NCBI RefSeq assembly: GCF_013315695.1
Contig: NZ_CP054353.1
DNA length: 64,000 bases
From: Escherichia coli
GTDB lineage: Bacteria; Pseudomonadota; Gammaproteobacteria; Enterobacterales; Enterobacteriaceae
Strand: one strand, 5' to 3'
The translations under genes were made by a program, and so were the position numbers. A model generated the notes under the pieces. It did no database searches. It had not been told where the DNA came from and saw nothing but the letters and a program-made list of their open reading frames with translations. Below are positions 4,129 through 58,318 of this stretch, in pieces. How positions within the stretch are numbered: position 1 is the first letter of the stretch; every line of letters begins with the position of its first letter.

Positions 4129-4298
4129 AATGGCTCACTCAAGCTTGCTCACGATTGATTCCAGTAACAAACCGTATTGTGTAATTATTTCTATAGCAGG
4201 TCGCTATATAGGATTGTATATATCGAATAATTTGAAAATCAAAGAGATAGGTAGATTTTCACTCGAAAGTAGTATTACGTGTAAGTGAGGAGTAATTA

Positions 4299-4312
4299 TT
4301 GTTCGGTATCAA
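4299..4312. promoter_or_regulatory. FNR box of the dmsA promoter
   Basis: The minus strand reads TTGATaccgAACAA (TTGAT-N4-ATCAA consensus). It is centred ~177 nt upstream of the dmsA ATG, consistent with the FNR-activated dmsA promoter. Confidence 0.6.
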
Positions 4313-4322
4313 AGGGAGACAA

Positions 4323-4338
4323 AAAAAGCGCCCGCAGG
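4323..4338. repeat. attL core (aaaaagcgcccgcagg)
   Basis: The identical 16-mer is found at 43150-43165. The right copy retains the full serS terminator hairpin. Confidence 0.75.
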
Positions 4339-4427
4339 AGATTTAACACACCTTACTCCCCTTGATGATTTACTTATTTTTCAATGACTAAATCAAAACA
4401 AGGGGAGCAAATTAACGCAAATTACAA

Positions 4428-5435
4428 CTAGTCAATGGACAGTTTATGGACACTATCAGCCAGCGGATTAAAGCTAATCGCATCCTGTAAAAAGTCCGGT
4501 GAAAAATGCGCATACGTCATCGTTTGTTGAATCGTGGCGTGCCCAAGGATTCGCTGTAACGTAACGATATTTCCGCCGTTCATCATGAAATGCGTGGCGA
4601 ACGTGTGACGCATAACGTGAGTCGCCTGACCTTTGGGTAAATCCGGTTTCACCTCCTGAAGGATATCCCGAAAACGGATGTAATCAGCCTGGTACAATAG
4701 CCCGGTTTTTCGGGTTTTTATCAACGAAAGCACCGTATCAGAAACAGGAACCGCGCGGGATTTTCCATTCTTTGTGTTAAAGAACATTACGCGGTTACCA
4801 ACGATATGCTCACCACGTAAGCCAGCTGCTTCCCCCCACCTTGCGCCAGTGGAAAGACACAGAACAGCAACACGACGCGCATCCCCCTCGAGTCGTTCAA
4901 GCAGCCGATCAATCTCATCATCTGAAAGAAAGGCCATTTCTGTATTCCTGACCTTGAGCTTACGTATTCCACGCACCGGGTTTTCGTTATGGAAAACCTC
5001 CGCATCAATCAACGCAGTAAACATTGCAGACAAGGCGCACAAATCACGATTAACACTGGAGGGCATTAATCCGGCCTGTAATTTGTCTGAACGATACCCG
5101 AGCATAAACTTTCGCGTCATCTCACTGGCGCGGGGGTCCCTCATCTCACGGTTTATTTTTTCCAGCCTGACCCTGTAAGTATCCCCGTAAGGCTGATTCC
5201 GGCCATCAAGCACCCACCAGGCATCTATCAGTTCGGATAACCGACGCTGATCAGCTGGCTTGGCCTGCCACGGTTTATCGTGGAAATTCTGCAAAACATA
5301 CCTTTCAAACTCCTGTGCCTTTGACTTCAGGGTAAAAATCTTACGGATCCGCTTTCCTTCCGTCCCTTGCGGTCTTACATCAACCTTATAACGCCCGTCT
5401 TTGAGTTGCTTAATCGACATGATTAGCCCCTCCAA
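4428..5435 (-). CDS. int: Tyrosine integrase, P2/186 Int family
   Basis: 335 aa. The C-terminal catalytic region HVMRHTFATHFMMNGGNIVTLQRILGHATIQQTMTYAH matches the P2/186 Int signature (R..HxxR..Y). Confidence 0.93.
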   Translation of the reverse strand: MEGLIMSIKQLKDGRYKVDVRPQGTEGKRIRKIFTLKSKAQEFERYVLQNFHDKPWQAKPADQRRLSELIDAWWVLDGRNQPYGDTYRVRLEKINREMRDPRASEMTRKFMLGYRSDKLQAGLMPSSVNRDLCALSAMFTALIDAEVFHNENPVRGIRKLKVRNTEMAFLSDDEIDRLLERLEGDARRVAVLCLSTGARWGEAAGLRGEHIVGNRVMFFNTKNGKSRAVPVSDTVLSLIKTRKTGLLYQADYIRFRDILQEVKPDLPKGQATHVMRHTFATHFMMNGGNIVTLQRILGHATIQQTMTYAHFSPDFLQDAISFNPLADSVHKLSID

Positions 5436-5489
5436 CGGATGAATCAGCCGTACACTCTCTACGGGATGAAACCCGCTCGATGTACAGCG

Positions 5490-5831
5490 TTAGCCAGCAT
5501 TGCGACGAGATCGGGGTGATTTTTGGGTAATGCCGATTGAAACCTGATCGCCCTCCGACTGAATGGAGCCATCAAGAGAGAGAGCCGGAGCTATCTGACC
5601 GGCAGCAGGCATTGTCTTATCTTTTATTAGCCACATCATGTATTTTTCAAACCGATCAACTTGGAGAACCATCTCAACAATTTTGGCTCTGGCGCTTTTT
5701 TGCCCTGATTCATAGTTCCTTATGGCAGCTAAAGACAACCCCGTAATATCCGCAAATTCCTTTTGCGTTAGCCCTTCAGCCTTGCGTATTTGACGTAGCT
5801 TTTTTGCATAGTCTATTGACAAGATAACCAT
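5490..5831 (-). CDS. CI-type immunity repressor (XRE-family HTH)
   Basis: 113 aa with HTH LTQKEFADITGLSLAAIRNYESG. Located between int and the divergent early operon. Confidence 0.8.
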   Translation of the reverse strand: MVILSIDYAKKLRQIRKAEGLTQKEFADITGLSLAAIRNYESGQKSARAKIVEMVLQVDRFEKYMMWLIKDKTMPAAGQIAPALSLDGSIQSEGDQVSIGITQKSPRSRRNAG

Positions 5832-5935: not shown

Positions 5936-6460
5936 ATGCGGAAGTCAATTGCCGATAAAGAGTTATCTGACACACAAGCCCTTCAGGAAAACGACAGCAT
6001 CACCGAATCCGTTGGCGCGGCAAACGACGATGAACACCAAGAGGAAAAGAAAAAACGCACCTACAAAAAAGGGGCAACCTTGCGACTAGATGGCCCGGTA
6101 GCCGGACTTTGCTCACTTGAAAAAGGGGCAGCCTATATCGGGTTGACAAAAGCTGCATTGCGCGTGGCGCTTCAGCGAAATCAGATGCCTGGACACAAGA
6201 CCCGTTCAAACCCTGAAGATGAAAATTCGGATGGCGTGTGGTGGTTTAACGCCAGAGAGTGGGACAAGCTGGCTGACGAACTACCAGAATGCGAGCCGCC
6301 AGAATGGCACAACTGGAAAAGCTACTGGACATACGACCGACAGAAAAGAAAGTTTTCCCCGGCAAACAAAGAAGACTGCCAGACCATCAATGGAAAGCGG
6401 GTTTACACAGGAAGAAAGTCAAAACTGGAGCAACACCAATACAGTGGAGGCAACCAGTGA
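5936..6460 (+). CDS. First early-operon protein; possible Cox/Apl-like DNA-binding regulator with an acidic N-terminal extension
   Basis: 174 aa, SD agagga upstream. HTH-like stretch GAAYIGLTKAALRVALQRNQMPG. The function is inferred only from its position. Confidence 0.5.
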   Translation: MRKSIADKELSDTQALQENDSITESVGAANDDEHQEEKKKRTYKKGATLRLDGPVAGLCSLEKGAAYIGLTKAALRVALQRNQMPGHKTRSNPEDENSDGVWWFNAREWDKLADELPECEPPEWHNWKSYWTYDRQKRKFSPANKEDCQTINGKRVYTGRKSKLEQHQYSGGNQ

Positions 6461-10375: not shown

Positions 10376-10726
10376 ATGGCAGTGATTTATATCGCCGGTC
10401 CCATGACCGGATGCAAAGACCACAACAGGACGGCATTTTGCGTGGAGGACCTGAAACTTCGGTGCGCCGGAAACATCGTTCTTAATCCTGCCGTACTGCC
10501 TGACGGATTAAGCCAGCAGCAGTACATGAGTATTTGTATTCCGATGCTCATGTGCGCCGATGCCATTTACTTACTGGATGGATGGGAAGAGTCCGCTGGC
10601 GCACGGGCTGAGTACGCAATGGCGCTCAAACTGAACATGCATGTGTCATTCCCGGAAAACCGGGCAGCCGGCGAAACCGTCGCGCAGCTGCTTCACAAAT
10701 CAAAAGCCGCACAGGCGACTGAGTAA
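10376..10726 (+). CDS. DUF4406-like (nucleoside 2-deoxyribosyltransferase-fold) protein
   Basis: MAVIYIAGPMTG...DAIYLLDGWEESAGARAEYAMA pattern is typical of this phage family. Confidence 0.6.
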   Translation: MAVIYIAGPMTGCKDHNRTAFCVEDLKLRCAGNIVLNPAVLPDGLSQQQYMSICIPMLMCADAIYLLDGWEESAGARAEYAMALKLNMHVSFPENRAAGETVAQLLHKSKAAQATE

Positions 10727-11164
10727 CCGACCGGAGATCGAAACATGATTGCGCGCAGAGCTACCAACCGTCTCACAGGCTTTATTCCAGGCAAGGTTGA
10801 TCATGCACTCCATCACGGGGCTGTCACTTTCCTCAACAAAGGAGAGGCGCGCAATCATGCATTCCGGGGTGAGCATGTGGCGCTGGCTAATCAGTCTTTG
10901 ATAGCTAAGCGCCTGCCATTCAGCCTTTTCAGCTCTGATAGAAAGAGAGGAAGCCATGACCTGCCACACCAGAAAGAGCACCACACTGGCGAAAACAAAC
11001 GTTGCGCTGTCGCAAAAAATGAATGCGGCAACAATCGCAAGGAAAGCGCTAATCCTCAGAACCAAGGAAGCGCGACGGTGGAGAAGGCTTGTCATGTGTT
11101 CAAGCCAGTAGCTGTACCACAGGTCAAAAAGAATTTCGTAATCAGAAGGGAGCTTATCACTCAT
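10700..11164 (-). CDS. Reverse-oriented 2-TM membrane protein (154 aa)
   Basis: ATG (MSDKLPSDYEIL...) with a ggggtg SD. Hydrophobic helices ISAFLAIVAAFIF and FVFASVVLFLVWQVMA. Convergent, with a 27-nt overlap on the preceding gene. Confidence 0.55.
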   Translation of the reverse strand: MSDKLPSDYEILFDLWYSYWLEHMTSLLHRRASLVLRISAFLAIVAAFIFCDSATFVFASVVLFLVWQVMASSLSIRAEKAEWQALSYQRLISQRHMLTPECMIARLSFVEESDSPVMECMINLAWNKACETVGSSARNHVSISGRLLSRLCGF

Positions 11165-11348
11165 CAGAAACACCCCGCGTATGCAGACAATCACCAGTTG
11201 CCAGGTGATATTAATTCGCAACATTCTAACCACATCAGCACGCAACACAAAAACCGCTTGCCAGCGCTCGTCGTGTCAGGTTACATTTCCGCTGCACCTC
11301 ATAAAACGGGTGCCGGGTTTCGCAGCCTGCTGACAACCAAAGCGCACA

Positions 11349-11368
11349 ACCGCGCCAGCGGTTTTTTT
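11349..11368 (+). terminator. Terminator-like hairpin plus T7 (copy 2 at 12178-12197)
   Basis: accgc-gcca-gcggt followed by ttttttt. It is nested inside a longer cgcacaa/ttgtgcg stem. Confidence 0.3.
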
Positions 11369-11380
11369 GTGCGTACTGTA

Positions 11381-11409
11381 TTGCCACGTCTTTTTCGCGT
11401 CAGAATTAT
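11381..11409 (+). promoter_or_regulatory. Sigma70-like promoter TTGCCA-17-AATTAT (copy 2 at 12210-12238)
   Basis: 5/6 match at -35, 17-nt spacer, 4/6 match at -10. It fires into the structured element. Confidence 0.35.
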
Positions 11410-11485
11410 GGCGGGGCGTACGGGGCCGACTTCGGTCGGGCCGGGTTCTTTGCTAGCCGGTACTGCGAACCTCGTACGTCTCGCC
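11410..11485 (+). ncRNA. Candidate structured RNA element (three-way junction), copy 1
   Basis: A 13-bp closing stem ggcggggcgtacg/cgtacgtctcgcc (2 G-U pairs) encloses a UUCG-tetraloop hairpin (ggccgac-ttcg-gtcgggcc) and a second hairpin (gggttc...gaacct). No convincing ORF. Confidence 0.3.
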
Positions 11486-11547
11486 ACCCACAGTTTCGCA
11501 GCTCTGGATGGTGAGTTTTCACAACTTACTAGCAAAGAGGCCACACC

Positions 11548-11769
11548 ATGGCAAACCGCAAGCAACAGCGCGCCCGCGCTGAGCGTCTTCACATCCGCAG
11601 CGAAATCAACCGCAGACTTTTCCGCGCAACACGCGTCGCGCAAATCATGCATATCAACATGCTGCATGAGCGCACGCACGCACTATCAAACCGTTACTGC
11701 GCTGCTGTCTTCAGCTATCTCGCCGAAGATCTGGCAGAACTGCAAAGCCTCATCAACCAGCACCGATAA
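11548..11769 (+). CDS. Hypothetical basic helical protein (73 aa), copy 1
   Basis: MANRKQQRARAERLHIRSEINRR..., SD agagg. Confidence 0.6.
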   Translation: MANRKQQRARAERLHIRSEINRRLFRATRVAQIMHINMLHERTHALSNRYCAAVFSYLAEDLAELQSLINQHR

Positions 11770-11837
11770 ACCACATCCGGAAGCTATCCCACACCTGCAC
11801 GCGGGAGGCTTCCGCACGTCTGTTACCGGAGGTTCTC

Positions 11838-12008
11838 ATGAAGAGCGTTAAGGGACTTTCAGATATTCAGGACTTCTTTAACTGGATGTGGGCGGTGGAT
11901 CCCCTGCTGGCTTCCCGCCTGAACAACTGGCACGACTATTACCGCCGCGCCTGTAAACAGGCTGCCCGCAGCGTCACCACATACGGGGCTTTCTCCTTCA
12001 CCGTTGAC
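11838..12008 (+). pseudogene. 5' fragment (57 codons) of the 138-aa gene, truncated at the duplication joint
   Basis: Identical to the start of 12667..13083 up to ...TTYG(A/D)FSFTV, then it runs into the repeated non-coding sequence. Confidence 0.7.
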
Positions 12009-12238
12009 TATGCAGACAATCACCAGTTGCCAGGTGATATTAATTCGCAACATTCTAACCACATCAGCACGCAACACAAAAACCGCTTGCCAGCGCTCGT
12101 CGTGTCGGGTTACATTTCCGCTGCACCTCATAAAACGGGTGCCGGGTTTCGCAGCCTGCCGACTAGCAAAGCGCACAACCGCGCCAGCGGTTTTTTTGTG
12201 CGTACTGTATTGCCACGTCTTTTTCGCGTCAGAATTAT

Positions 12239-12314
12239 GGCGGGGCGTACGGGGCCGACTTCGGTCGGGCCGGGTTCTTTGCTAGCCGGTACTGCGAACC
12301 TCGTACGTCTCGCC
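12239..12314 (+). ncRNA. Candidate structured RNA element, copy 2
   Basis: Identical to 11410-11485 (offset 829). Confidence 0.3.
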
Positions 12315-12376
12315 ACCCACAGTTTCGCAGCTCTGGATGGTGAGTTTTCACAACTTACTAGCAAAGAGGCCACACC

Positions 12377-12598
12377 ATGGCAAACCGCAAGCAACAGCGC
12401 GCCCGCGCTGAGCGTCTTCACATCCGCAGCGAAATCAACCGCAGACTTTTCCGCGCAACACGCGTCGCGCAAATCATGCATATCAACATGCTGCATGAGC
12501 GCACGCACGCACTATCAAACCGTTACTGCGCTGCTGTCTTCAGCTATCTCGCCGAAGATCTGGCAGAACTGCAAAGCCTCATCAACCAGCACCGATAA
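12377..12598 (+). CDS. Hypothetical basic helical protein (73 aa), copy 2
   Basis: Identical to 11548..11769. Confidence 0.6.
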   Translation: MANRKQQRARAERLHIRSEINRRLFRATRVAQIMHINMLHERTHALSNRYCAAVFSYLAEDLAELQSLINQHR

Positions 12599-12666
12599 AC
12601 CACATCCGGAAGCTATCCCACACCTGCACGCGGGAGGCTTCCGCACGTCTGTTACCGGAGGTTCTC

Positions 12667-13083
12667 ATGAAGAGCGTTAAGGGACTTTCAGATATTCAGG
12701 ACTTCTTTAACTGGATGTGGGCGGTGGATCCCCTGCTGGCTTCCCGCCTGAACAACTGGCACGACTATTACCGCCGCGCCTGTAAACAGGCTGCCCGCAG
12801 CGTCACCACATACGGGGATTTCTCCTTCACCGTGGACGGTCGTTACCGCGTGGACGTGAAAGGTGATGGTGATGGACTGGGTTTATTTCACATCAACGGC
12901 ACCGACAGTACCGCCATCAGCTGGTCGTCATCAGAGATGGCGCTGGTTCTGGAAATGACAACCCACAGCGTGGCCGTGAAAGGTATATACACCGCAGAAG
13001 GTTTTATCGGCGAATACCAGCGCCTTCTCGTGCTGTACCGCGCGGCGTTTCAGGTGGCAACTGCCGGGGAGTGCGACGCATGA
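12667..13083 (+). CDS. Hypothetical early protein (138 aa), intact copy
   Basis: SD ggaggt. The stop overlaps the gpA start (ATGA). Confidence 0.65.
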   Translation: MKSVKGLSDIQDFFNWMWAVDPLLASRLNNWHDYYRRACKQAARSVTTYGDFSFTVDGRYRVDVKGDGDGLGLFHINGTDSTAISWSSSEMALVLEMTTHSVAVKGIYTAEGFIGEYQRLLVLYRAAFQVATAGECDA

Positions 13084-15593
13084 GCGACCATAACGCACAA
13101 CTGGCGTACCCGTGGAACGCCCCGCTACCGGTTATCGATCCTGAAACGTTCGGCAGAGCACAGCCAACCGCATTACGCCAGGCCATTCAGAGCTACATCA
13201 ACGAGGACATTCGCATTGATGCCAGACTGGATGAAGAAACCGTCGCCTTTCTGACAACCACAGACGAAGGGAAGCGAATTAATTCGCACCTTCACCACAA
13301 CGAAGAGCGTCGGATCAGACTGGAAAAACTGGCGCGGCACAAACGCGAGAATCCGCCCACGGTGGTATCGGAAGCCATGGCAGAACTTCGCGCCCTGCCC
13401 TCGTTTCTTGGCAACGCGCTCATTCGTGATCTGGCGCGTTTAAACCGCAAACAGCAAAGCGCCCGCCATGAAGGCGTGAAAAACAACAATACACACGTGG
13501 CTGATAACTTTGTTCGCCGTGGACTGCGCACACGCCTGAAACGCATCGAACAGGTGAATGAATGCTTCGCCACGACGGCATTCAAAGCCACCGCAGCACG
13601 CCATCGCCTTGATGAATTACTCATGCTGCCACAACTCAACCGTGATCAAATTCAGCGCCTTGCCACACTAACGGCGGCGGCATTTTCCACCGAACTGGAA
13701 CGCATATGTGATGAAGTTACTGAGCGGACAGGAAAAGGCGACGATAACCTGTTTACCTGGTTGCTGACTTACCAGCAGCTGGCGCGCATGGCAATAAAAC
13801 TGGGCGTGAACCCACCATACTGGCCGTCACTCGAGATCAGACGTGACCGCCGCACGGCACCAGACCCTGAACTGGTACCGGGCGCGGTAATGCGTATCAC
13901 CTGCGCCACCTGGTGGAACAACCAGCTGCGCCACCTCGCTGATCTCTGGCGGGAGGAATTACTGCGTGCCGCCGGAAGAGTATCGCGCAAGGCATCCCCC
14001 TACATCAGCCATGAGTCACTCCAGGAATTCCGGGAGAAACGCCAGCGCACCCGTGATTTTCTCAAAAGCTGGGACATTGAAAACGAAGACGGTGAACGCC
14101 TGAGCCTGGAGGACGTGTACTGGTCAGGGCTGGGGAATCCGCGCAACCGCCGCAACGAGATGATGGCCTGCGTCAGAGGGATGGAACAGGTCGCCGAATC
14201 GCGTGGTGACTCCGCGTTCTTCGTGACAGTGACCTGCCCTTCCCGCTTTCACAGCGTAAACGAGGACGGCAGCCTGAACCCGAAATACAACGGTGCCACC
14301 GTGCGCGATGCCAGTGATTATCTGGTTTACGACGTCTTTGCAGCTGCAAGAAAAAAACTCAACAAAGAAGGCCTGAGCTGGTACGGGGTGCGCACCGTTG
14401 AGCCACACCATGACGGCACACCGCACTGGCACATGCTGGTATTCACCGCCCCGGACAATGAAGAACGCATCATTGAAATCATGCGTGACGCAGCAATCAA
14501 ATCAGATCGCGCAGAACTGGGGAATGATATTTCTCCGCGCTTCAAGTGCGAAAAAATCGACCCGGCAAAAGGCACACCGGCAAGCTACATCGCAACCTAT
14601 ATTGGCAAGAACCTGGACGCCAGCACCTTTCACGACAATGACCCGAAAACCGGCAAACCTTACGCCGATAAAGAATCGGGAAAAACCATGGCGGAAACCG
14701 TGGAAAACGCCATTGCCTGGGCGAGTCTCCACCGCATCCGGCAGTTCCAGTTCTTCGGTATCCCGCCCCGCCAGGTATGGCGTGAACTCCGCCGCCTTGC
14801 CGGACAAATGGAGCGTAACCCCGCATCACCGAAGCGCCTGGACCATGACGACATTGACGCCATTCTGGCCGCCGCTGACGTGGGGTGTTTTGCCACCTAC
14901 ATCAACCGTCAGGGCGGCGTGCTCATTCCACGCAACCTGTACCTGATCCGCACCGCATACGAAACCGCAGATGAGGCCAACGACTACGGCGAATTCCCGC
15001 AGCGCATCTACGGAATTTGTGCCCCGTCGCTCGGCGAGCGCTACACCATCTGCACCCATCCGGACGAGTGGAAACTGGTCAGAAAAGAAGCGAAAGCCGA
15101 CAACAGCACGGACGAGGATTTTGACGTTGGGGGCGGCTTCGCCGCACCTTGGACTCGTGGCAATAACTGTCGCCATGATGAAAAAACAGACACCGAAGAG
15201 GGTAAAAACCCACCACCGGAAACCAGGAAAGAACAAAAACTGGTCGTCCCGGAAGGTGATTTGGGCGAGTGGTTAAGGTCACTGACCCCCACAGAGCGAA
15301 AACAACTCACCAGGCAGCTGAAAGATGCGCCATCTGACACAAAAACCGTGAAAACCGGCGGCCCCACCACGCCCGATGACGTCATACATGTGCGTACCGC
15401 ATTGCCGCTGGCTGACGTCACCACCACCGTGATCAAGTCGGCACTGAGCACGACGGGCGAGGAGCTGCACAGTGGCGCGGCACTTTCCGTACACAGAGGT
15501 GCACGCGTTCGCCTGCCTGACGGGCGGATTGTGCACTGGGATGAGAAATCACGAAGCCTGGTGGCAGCAGATCAACCGGAGGTGAACCCATGA
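13080..15593 (+). CDS. gpA: Rolling-circle replication initiator endonuclease, P2 gpA family
   Basis: Motifs AYPWNAP, VEPHHDGTPHWHMLVF (HUH) and YIATYIGKN (catalytic Tyr pair) as in P2 A. Start MSDHNAQ is coupled to the upstream stop. Confidence 0.93.
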   Translation: MSDHNAQLAYPWNAPLPVIDPETFGRAQPTALRQAIQSYINEDIRIDARLDEETVAFLTTTDEGKRINSHLHHNEERRIRLEKLARHKRENPPTVVSEAMAELRALPSFLGNALIRDLARLNRKQQSARHEGVKNNNTHVADNFVRRGLRTRLKRIEQVNECFATTAFKATAARHRLDELLMLPQLNRDQIQRLATLTAAAFSTELERICDEVTERTGKGDDNLFTWLLTYQQLARMAIKLGVNPPYWPSLEIRRDRRTAPDPELVPGAVMRITCATWWNNQLRHLADLWREELLRAAGRVSRKASPYISHESLQEFREKRQRTRDFLKSWDIENEDGERLSLEDVYWSGLGNPRNRRNEMMACVRGMEQVAESRGDSAFFVTVTCPSRFHSVNEDGSLNPKYNGATVRDASDYLVYDVFAAARKKLNKEGLSWYGVRTVEPHHDGTPHWHMLVFTAPDNEERIIEIMRDAAIKSDRAELGNDISPRFKCEKIDPAKGTPASYIATYIGKNLDASTFHDNDPKTGKPYADKESGKTMAETVENAIAWASLHRIRQFQFFGIPPRQVWRELRRLAGQMERNPASPKRLDHDDIDAILAAADVGCFATYINRQGGVLIPRNLYLIRTAYETADEANDYGEFPQRIYGICAPSLGERYTICTHPDEWKLVRKEAKADNSTDEDFDVGGGFAAPWTRGNNCRHDEKTDTEEGKNPPPETRKEQKLVVPEGDLGEWLRSLTPTERKQLTRQLKDAPSDTKTVKTGGPTTPDDVIHVRTALPLADVTTTVIKSALSTTGEELHSGAALSVHRGARVRLPDGRIVHWDEKSRSLVAADQPEVNP

Positions 15594-58100: not shown

Positions 58101-58188
58101 GGTGAGGTGTCCGAGTGGCTGAAGGAGCACGCCTGGAAAGTGTGTATACGGCAACGTATCGGGGGTTCGAATCCCCCCCTCACCGCCA
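58101..58188 (+). tRNA. serW: tRNA-Ser (anticodon GGA)
   Basis: GGTGAGGTGTCCGAGTGGCTGAAGGAGCACGCCTGGAAAGTGTG...GGTTCGAATCCCCCCCTCACCGCCA. It has a long variable arm, a T-loop and a CCA end. Confidence 0.97.
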
Positions 58189-58230: not shown

Positions 58231-58318
58231 CATTTTATCTGCCTGTACGGCAGTGAACGGTATAAAAATCGAGTTTTTCTTTCGGTTGGCTTTCTAAGCT
58301 GCCTGTACGGCAGTGAAC
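58231..58318 (-). CRISPR. Orphan type I-F mini-array: 2 repeats, 1 spacer
   Basis: Minus-strand repeat GTTCACTGCCGTACAGGCAGCTTAGAAA is perfect at 58291-58318. The copy at 58231-58258 is degenerate in its last 8 nt. The spacer is 32 nt (58259-58290). No cas genes in the window. Confidence 0.8.

Follow-up and report, generated by a model that had tools for sequence, protein, structure and literature searches.

We analyzed a 64,000-nucleotide (nt) stretch of Escherichia coli DNA (contig NZ_CP054353.1 of NCBI RefSeq assembly GCF_013315695.1), referred to here as the window, with a focus on a gene encoding a 154-amino-acid (aa) protein with two predicted transmembrane (TM) segments, referred to here as the 2-TM gene. 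The gene resides in a P2-like prophage that is inserted beside dmsA and whose nearest isolated phages are of the P88 type (Xuanwuvirus, Peduoviridae). In this prophage, genes for integrase and a helix-turn-helix (HTH) repressor are followed by cox and then by a rightward early operon, which includes genes for a 3'-5' exonuclease, a Dam methylase, and a DUF4406 protein (coordinates in Table 1). Rfam models place isrK and the C4 antisense RNA between the DUF4406 gene and replication gene A, with second copies of both 829 nt to the right, and a 73-aa derepression gene comes after each isrK/C4 pair. The original prediction, made from the sequence alone, had described a minus-strand open reading frame (ORF) with two hydrophobic stretches, antisense to and convergent with the early operon, overlapping the DUF4406 gene by 27 nt at the 3' end, and starting 16 nt from the left edge of a tandem duplication; the ORF list, the Kyte-Doolittle profile, and the coordinates agreed with this description on every point.

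The minus-strand ORF is a genuine protein-coding gene under purifying selection. When the window was compared with two E. coli alleles of approximately 80% nucleotide identity (loci L005 and L006), minus-frame substitutions at codon positions 3, 1, and 2 numbered 48, 26-30, and 16, respectively, with third positions accounting for 48 of 90 relative to L005. The ratio of nonsynonymous to synonymous substitution rates (dN/dS, Nei-Gojobori method) was 0.20-0.22 in the minus frame versus 0.90-1.07 in the plus frame. Homology across genera, detected by tblastn and hidden Markov model (HMM) searches, falls in the minus frame as well. The converse reading is that the minus-strand ORF is noncoding and that the real gene is a 368-aa ORF on the plus strand, elsewhere annotated as Ash-like or as a transcriptional regulator. 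It draws on the length of that ORF and its overlap with the minus-strand gene, on early-strand coding sequences (CDSs) that annotators placed at the corresponding region of Yersinia phage vB_YenM_42.18 (gp08) and of Fels-2 (STM2733.1), and on weak matches to Phage_ASH and to phrog regulator families. These matches, however, are confined to aa 164-287, i.e., to the translated isrK and C4 RNA genes, and opposite the TM region the plus-strand product is a hydrophilic, low-complexity string. An open frame whose second codon positions coincide with those of a real gene on the other strand, as is the case here, is the classic form of a spurious ORF. Based on the dN/dS values and the location of the plus-strand family matches, we conclude that the minus-strand gene is real and the 368-aa ORF is not.

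RefSeq start calls for the gene disagree, giving proteins of 154, 174, or 215 aa, and an in-frame GTG further upstream, at 11248, would yield 182 aa. Because distant homologues align from the methionine encoded by the ATG at 11164, and each is preceded by a Shine-Dalgarno-like site, this ATG was taken as the true start, and the GTG and the 174- and 215-aa starts were dropped. The homologues carry GGAGG, GAGGA, or AGGA at the same spacing as the site in the window.

The protein matches phrog_6315, a phage family of unknown function, with an E-value of 8.2e-66 (aa 6-154 onto profile positions 2-149 of 152), and all 18 aligned relatives match this family as well. The family is small: among 1.8 billion cluster representatives (50%-identity library), searched exhaustively with HMMER, only 22 clusters matched at E <= 1e-3; most of these are 152-167 aa long and colinear end to end with the query at 24-39% identity, and a few are fragments or mis-called longer ORFs. 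Homologues are found in Enterobacterales, Pseudomonas, and other Proteobacteria, with profile searches adding members from Salmonella, Pantoea, Rahnella, Erwinia, Citrobacter, Pseudomonas, Methylococcus, and Aromatoleum. Pfam searches with the window protein and its relatives gave only subthreshold matches to DUF6239, DUF6136, and DUF6249, and literature searches on STM2734, on SLATT with prophage or superinfection exclusion, and on Hailong/HalA found nothing on the phrog_6315 family.

Within E. coli the gene is rare: it is annotated by RefSeq in 24 complete genomes, and a second allele in 12 more, out of 5426 genomes, versus 1277 genomes that have some part of the flanking 2.9-kb region. The second allele, with a protein identity of 39%, is found at the equivalent position upstream of isrK, and the 12 complete genomes that carry it include O103:H2 12009 and O145 RM9872 (for example, NC_013353.1 1958620-1959087). 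In strains JNEC-KY204 and DETEC-S792, both alleles are present, each at its own site on the chromosome and presumably in different prophages. The gene is mosaic between E. coli alleles: codons 16-105 (window 10850-11120), which encode both TM helices, show 53-78% nucleotide identity, while the gene ends and the upstream region of the same alleles are 98-100% identical. This pattern points to a membrane hairpin that has been exchanged by recombination or has diversified.

AlphaFold2, supplied with the family alignment, produced a model (mean predicted local distance difference test score [pLDDT], 87; predicted template-modeling score [pTM], 0.78) in which two helices of approximately 40 residues, spanning residues 8-50 and 54-93, form a hairpin; after it, three short helices make up a small helical domain at the C terminus. 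The hydrophobic stretches make up the turn-proximal half of the hairpin and are separated by the loop CDSAT (3-5 residues). H28-R29-R30 precede the first TM segment, and R77 and K80 come after the second. Since arginine or lysine at positions 29, 30, 77, and 80 flanks the segments, the positive-inside rule would place both termini in the cytoplasm (N-in/C-in) and the CDSAT loop in the periplasm. The conserved residues, i.e., F13, Y17, E22, R31, A81, Q84, Y88, L91, D114/S115, and A125, all lie outside the hydrophobic segments, and the conserved motifs are F..L.YSY.LE in the N-terminal helix, Q..RY..L after the second TM segment, and E.DS and NPA.N.A in the C-terminal domain.

The strongest clue to the biology of the gene comes from its context: an antisense orientation to an early lytic operon at all of the loci examined. 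These loci comprise P2-like prophages of E. coli (with either allele) and of Erwinia, Yersinia phage vB_YenM_42.18, Fels-2, a Pseudomonas prophage, and lambdoid prophages. In two lambdoid prophages, the gene lies 330-450 bp from the S24-HTH repressor gene (cI) and is convergent with it; the slot beside cI is where lambda carries rexAB. A lambdoid metagenomic locus (L015) has a 161-aa gene without a Pfam match (5040-5525, plus strand) on the same strand as the family member and just upstream of it, which may be a lineage-specific partner gene. The phages P88 and P88_4B11, which are otherwise collinear with the window, lack the 2-TM gene, and at the same junction their early genes abut the isrK module directly. 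By this comparison, the gene is gained or lost as a cassette.

A scan for sigma-70-like elements detected a leftward promoter candidate upstream of the gene (TTGTGT-16-TAGAAT), with its -10 element at 11228-11223, which scores below the threshold of a separate promoter-pattern tool and stands back-to-back with the rightward promoter-like site of isrK. When the junctions were aligned, the leftward-promoter block was common to the window and locus L008, where the -10 element reads TATAAT; the L008 protein is 39% identical to that of the window, the 5' untranslated region (UTR) cannot be aligned, and the promoter element is kept. P88 and P88_4B11 are without the -10 element and the spacer of the candidate. 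A promoter element that travels with its gene would be typical of an accessory-gene cassette with its own promoter.

Several independent but weak signals converge on SLATT membrane effectors. The NCBIfam model SLATT_4 (NF033632) was matched by 8 of the initial 18 relatives and by 2 of another 10 (10/28), with E-values of 2e-4 to 0.1 and scores of 12-21 bits, compared to a curated cutoff of 55 bits; the matches are colinear, with protein residues from about 24 to 103 aligned onto model positions 25-112 of 154. The Pfam SLATT_4 model (PF18186) gave a best E-value of 0.11, SLATT_1 was matched by two family members, and the PADLOC models for the "2TM" effector of the cyclic oligonucleotide-based antiphage signaling system (CBASS) were matched weakly by relatives (up to 1.3e-4). 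Other TM families were each matched by one member only. In a reversal control for composition with ten members, none of the reversed sequences matched any SLATT model, compared to nine of the same ten sequences read forward; because reversed sequences fail and the model positions align in order, the resemblance is order-specific and colinear. When Foldseek was run against the BFVD viral models, the top match and 5 of the 10 best were annotated as SLATT, with a best E-value of 1.9e-3 and TM-scores of only 0.33-0.46. UniRef labels one member, P0045, as a SLATT-domain protein, an assignment that could not be reproduced. By AlphaFold2 and hydropathy, the protein has the core architecture of a SLATT protein, i.e., two adjacent TM helices flanked by predicted cytoplasmic helices.

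SLATT_4 has been listed as a type I CBASS effector (PMC11381338), and SLATT proteins have been described as predicted pore-forming effectors whose gating is an open question (DRT10 preprint, 10.64898/2026.04.29.721553). With the SLATT_4 (PF18186/NF033632) effectors of CBASS and the SLATT_5 effectors of the defense-associated reverse transcriptase (DRT) system DRT10/UG17, the 2-TM protein has in common a size in the range of about 150-190 aa and the helix arrangement, and the family adds the weak HMM matches in sequence order, the PADLOC matches of relatives, and SLATT proteins as top structural matches among viral models. It differs from them in scoring far under the curated cutoffs and in being encoded by a single gene, antisense within a phage early operon and without a sensor, rather than in a defense operon.

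Altogether, we favor, with a probability of about 45%, the reading that the 2-TM gene serves a P2-like (Xuanwuvirus/P88-type) prophage as an accessory ("moron") gene and that its product would be a lysogen-expressed, SLATT-like membrane effector acting in abortive infection or exclusion. The suggestion in the original prediction, that lysogen-expressed membrane proteins in such a configuration are often superinfection-exclusion or abortive-infection factors, is thereby supported in part. Expression in the lysogen would be consistent with the antisense orientation conserved in P2-like, lambdoid, and Pseudomonas prophages, and the weak similarity to SLATT proteins and the CBASS "2TM effector" fits an effector of the abortive-infection type. 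The gene would be transcribed leftward from its own weak sigma-70 promoter, situated where the Pe early operon meets the derepression-orf138-A unit that isrK/C4 controls; expression would therefore occur in the lysogen, where Pe is repressed, and would be dampened by head-on transcription once the prophage is induced. In what is the least certain step, the protein would be a distant stand-alone relative of the SLATT 2TM effectors and would oligomerize in the inner membrane. Upon superinfection it might either permeabilize or depolarize the membrane (abortive infection) or block the entry of incoming phage DNA (exclusion), in both cases with the lysogen population protected.

A number of results weigh against this reading. 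The window protein itself matched no SLATT model in the HMM scans and none of the PADLOC models, the SLATT matches of its relatives all remain below the curated cutoff, the TM-scores of the Foldseek matches are low, and searches of the PDB returned generic helical hairpins only, with no solved SLATT-like structure. Because the window protein is unmatched, all scores are below threshold, and the PDB matches are generic, we describe the protein as SLATT-like without assigning it to the superfamily. What defines SLATT proteins at the genomic level is the presence of a CD-NTase, SLOG, TIR, or reverse transcriptase gene next to them; no such gene was found among the window neighbors or at loci L003-L015, and with no sensor partner gene nearby, the usual activation logic of SLATT proteins is missing. 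The promoter candidate agrees with the consensus at only 8 of 12 positions, and the scan found no comparable promoter at the Fels-2 and Erwinia loci; at the Yersinia locus, the sole match lies 4 nt from the start codon and is implausible. An intrinsic terminator at 10720-10705 was set aside as doubtful, its fold (-7.2 kcal/mol) being no better than that of shuffled sequences.

Lysogen-expressed prophage membrane proteins of exclusion and abortive infection are represented by lambda RexB, P22/lambda SieB, T4 Imm, and HK97 gp15. Like these, the 2-TM protein is small, is predicted to reside in the inner membrane, and is encoded by temperate phages near the immunity or early region, and its lambdoid relatives occupy the slot beside cI, as rexAB does. 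Unlike rexAB, the 2-TM gene is oriented convergently to cI and the early genes instead of being cotranscribed with cI, and it is single, without a RexA-like partner; furthermore, Pfam scans at E <= 1 detected none of the known exclusion and abortive-infection families (SieB, Rex) and hence no sequence similarity to them. Classical morons and lysogenic-conversion genes, such as lambda bor and P2 old, tin, and fun, are transcribed independently of or against the lytic operons, and the 2-TM gene resembles them in being polymorphic for presence, in having a promoter-like element that travels along with it, and in lying at a module boundary. Two defense hotspots of P2 have been described by Rousset et al. 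2022 (PMC9122126). The 2-TM gene lies at neither of these hotspots but in the middle of the early/replication region, with its 3' end overlapping a convergent early gene; a term search of that article found no mention of "early operon," and its single mention of SLATT concerns a P4-satellite RT-SLATT system.

Among the alternatives, the one that survives best, although we regard it as unlikely, is that the protein serves the phage life cycle as a membrane-anchored modulator of replication, lysis timing, or the lysis-lysogeny decision, produced at a low level or by antisense read-through during infection. The position of the gene within the replication/early region beside regulatory RNAs would suit such a role, the conserved motifs in the predicted cytoplasmic parts suggest a conserved partner, and no known defense family was matched above threshold. 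In all of the phage types examined, however, the orientation of the gene is antisense to the lytic operon. The gene is also dispensable for the lytic cycle, given that close relatives such as P88 do without it, and its neighbors are not conserved across loci. Less probable still, and by a clear step, is an addiction or toxin module in which a membrane-toxic SLATT-like protein, restrained by antisense transcription or by isrK/C4, would stabilize the prophage or kill cells that lose it. A membrane hairpin similar to pore-forming effectors would be in keeping with this proposal, as would the arrangement at E. coli Xuanwuvirus-like loci, where the gene lies beside isrK/C4 with the promoters back-to-back; however, isrK/C4 is absent from the Yersinia, Fels-2, and Erwinia loci, which leaves no conserved RNA partner, no conserved antitoxin ORF is adjacent, and a protein of 154 aa with a predicted structured cytoplasmic domain is unlike the type I toxins, which are hydrophobic and shorter than about 60 aa. 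We consider it very improbable that the protein is an anti-defense decoy, i.e., a SLATT-like subunit that poisons the SLATT effectors of host CBASS or DRT systems by assembling with them: the lack of a sensor partner beside a SLATT-like protein, and a TM hairpin that is the most variable, mosaic part between alleles, as for an interaction surface under conflict, are set against a similarity too weak to predict hetero-oligomerization and an orientation opposite to the lytic direction in which counter-defense genes are normally expressed early. Alone among the alternatives, the assignment of the gene to the plus-strand 368-aa ORF is already contradicted by the data above and is effectively excluded.

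Under the reading of a lysogen-expressed defense or exclusion effector, the finding is a plausible candidate for a prophage accessory defense gene and not a demonstrated new mechanism. It combines an unexpected, distant SLATT resemblance with a notably conserved antisense placement of the prophage gene. If the reading is true, the gene would constitute a compact single-gene defense or exclusion module, related to SLATT effectors and without a sensor; it would offer a minimal system for studying SLATT gating, and it would mark a third accessory-gene slot, inside the early operon, beyond the two known P2 defense hotspots. A wider version of the proposal is more doubtful: phrog_6315 as a whole might be a stand-alone, sensor-less SLATT-like branch that is inserted antisense in the early operons of unrelated temperate phages (P2-like, lambdoid, and Pseudomonas), with the protein produced in the repressed prophage only and its synthesis stopped by head-on transcription on induction. 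Such a protein would provide abortive infection or exclusion from a single gene, with a trigger other than a dedicated nucleotide-synthesizing partner.

Table 1. Features of the window at and around the 2-TM gene (positions are those of the 64,000-nt stretch)
Feature	Position	Strand	Remarks
Integrase gene	4428-5435	minus	
HTH repressor gene	5490-5831	minus	
cox	5936-6460	plus	Rightward early operon comes next
DUF4406 gene	10376-10726	plus	Pfam PF14359, E 1e-32
Terminator-like hairpin and T-rich tail	10695-10720	minus	Overlaps stop codon of 2-TM gene; pattern scan; weak, doubtful
2-TM gene CDS (154 aa, SLATT-like, phrog_6315)	10700-11164	minus	ORF from ATG
Convergent 3'-end overlap of 2-TM and DUF4406 genes	10700-10726		27 nt
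Opposite-strand ORF (368 aa)	10745-11851	plus	Second codon positions coincide with those of 2-TM gene; extends through isrK and C4
TM segment 2 (aa 55-75)	10940-11002	minus	Kyte-Doolittle windows; inside AlphaFold2 helix 54-93
TM segment 1 (aa 32-51)	11012-11071	minus	Kyte-Doolittle 19-residue windows >2.0; inside AlphaFold2 helix 8-50
Shine-Dalgarno-like GGGGTG	11171-11176	minus	6 nt before ATG; sequence reading
Duplication copy 1	11180-12008		Promoter candidate, isrK, C4 RNA, 73-aa derepression gene, first 57 orf138 codons
Leftward sigma-70-like promoter candidate	11223-11250	minus	Own scan; 8/12 consensus matches
Rightward isrK promoter-like site	11258-11287	plus	Back-to-back with leftward candidate
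isrK	11294-11368		Rfam
C4 antisense RNA	11404-11491		Rfam
73-aa derepression gene	11548-11769		PF25738
Duplication copy 2	12009-12837		Intact second leftward promoter candidate, 12052-12079
Replication gene A	13071-15593		

The two copies of the tandem duplication (window 11180-12837; L001 3881-5538) are offset by 829 nt, and in the window they differ at 6 sites, three of them in isrK (11331, 11335, and 11337). As anticipated by the original prediction, the region upstream of the 2-TM gene is duplicated, with the promoter-like element recurring intact; the left edge separates the predicted -10 element from the ATG and lies within the probable 5' UTR. The second promoter copy is directed not at a 2-TM gene but at a truncated fragment of orf138 and at the copy-1 derepression gene. 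The same junction recurs in two complete E. coli genomes (G6/7 and G8), and we therefore regard the duplication as a real polymorphism rather than an assembly slip in the window alone; the other listed complete genomes that span the region are all unduplicated (two blast pieces, approximately 2.07 kb). In G6/7 and G8, the copies differ at 43 sites clustered in isrK and C4, i.e., they are heterotypic tandem small RNA (sRNA) modules. The duplicated content is chiefly the isrK/C4/derepression module, and the duplication does not appear to be tied functionally to the 2-TM gene, as only the 5' UTR and the promoter candidate of the gene are duplicated and most carriers are without the duplication. 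An obligatory link of the gene to isrK/C4 was rejected, these RNAs being absent at the Yersinia (L003), Fels-2 (L004), and Erwinia (L010) loci. The duplication also creates a 280-aa chimeric ORF (11838-12680, plus strand), in which the first 57 orf138 codons run on into the second isrK/C4 copy, translated out of frame; this ORF almost certainly encodes no functional protein.

The strand assignment has consequences for annotation, in that early-strand CDSs in at least two reference phage genomes, as well as "Ash-like" or "transcriptional regulator" calls over isrK/C4, are probably artifacts. In vB_YenM_42.18, gp08 (221 aa; L003 3809-4474, minus strand), and in Fels-2, STM2733.1 (L004 3908-4312, minus strand), each lies over a conserved antisense family ORF of 152-156 aa and is probably a spurious wrong-strand call. 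ORFs across isrK/C4 give weak "Phage_ASH" or "transcriptional regulator" matches (window 10745-11851, plus strand; L012 3510-4127) and are annotated accordingly in P88_4B11 gp51; such calls probably represent RNA genes mis-annotated as protein, and the error may be widespread.

Two further features were observed away from the 2-TM gene. The sRNA STnc130 (126 bits) lies at 4219-4353 (plus strand), between dmsA and the integrase gene, at or near the prophage attachment junction. At the other side of the window, an 85-nt tRNA (58101-58185, plus strand) is followed approximately 100 nt on by a single CRISPR-DR4 repeat match (50 bits; 58291-58318, minus strand), which could be an isolated repeat or a degenerate array.

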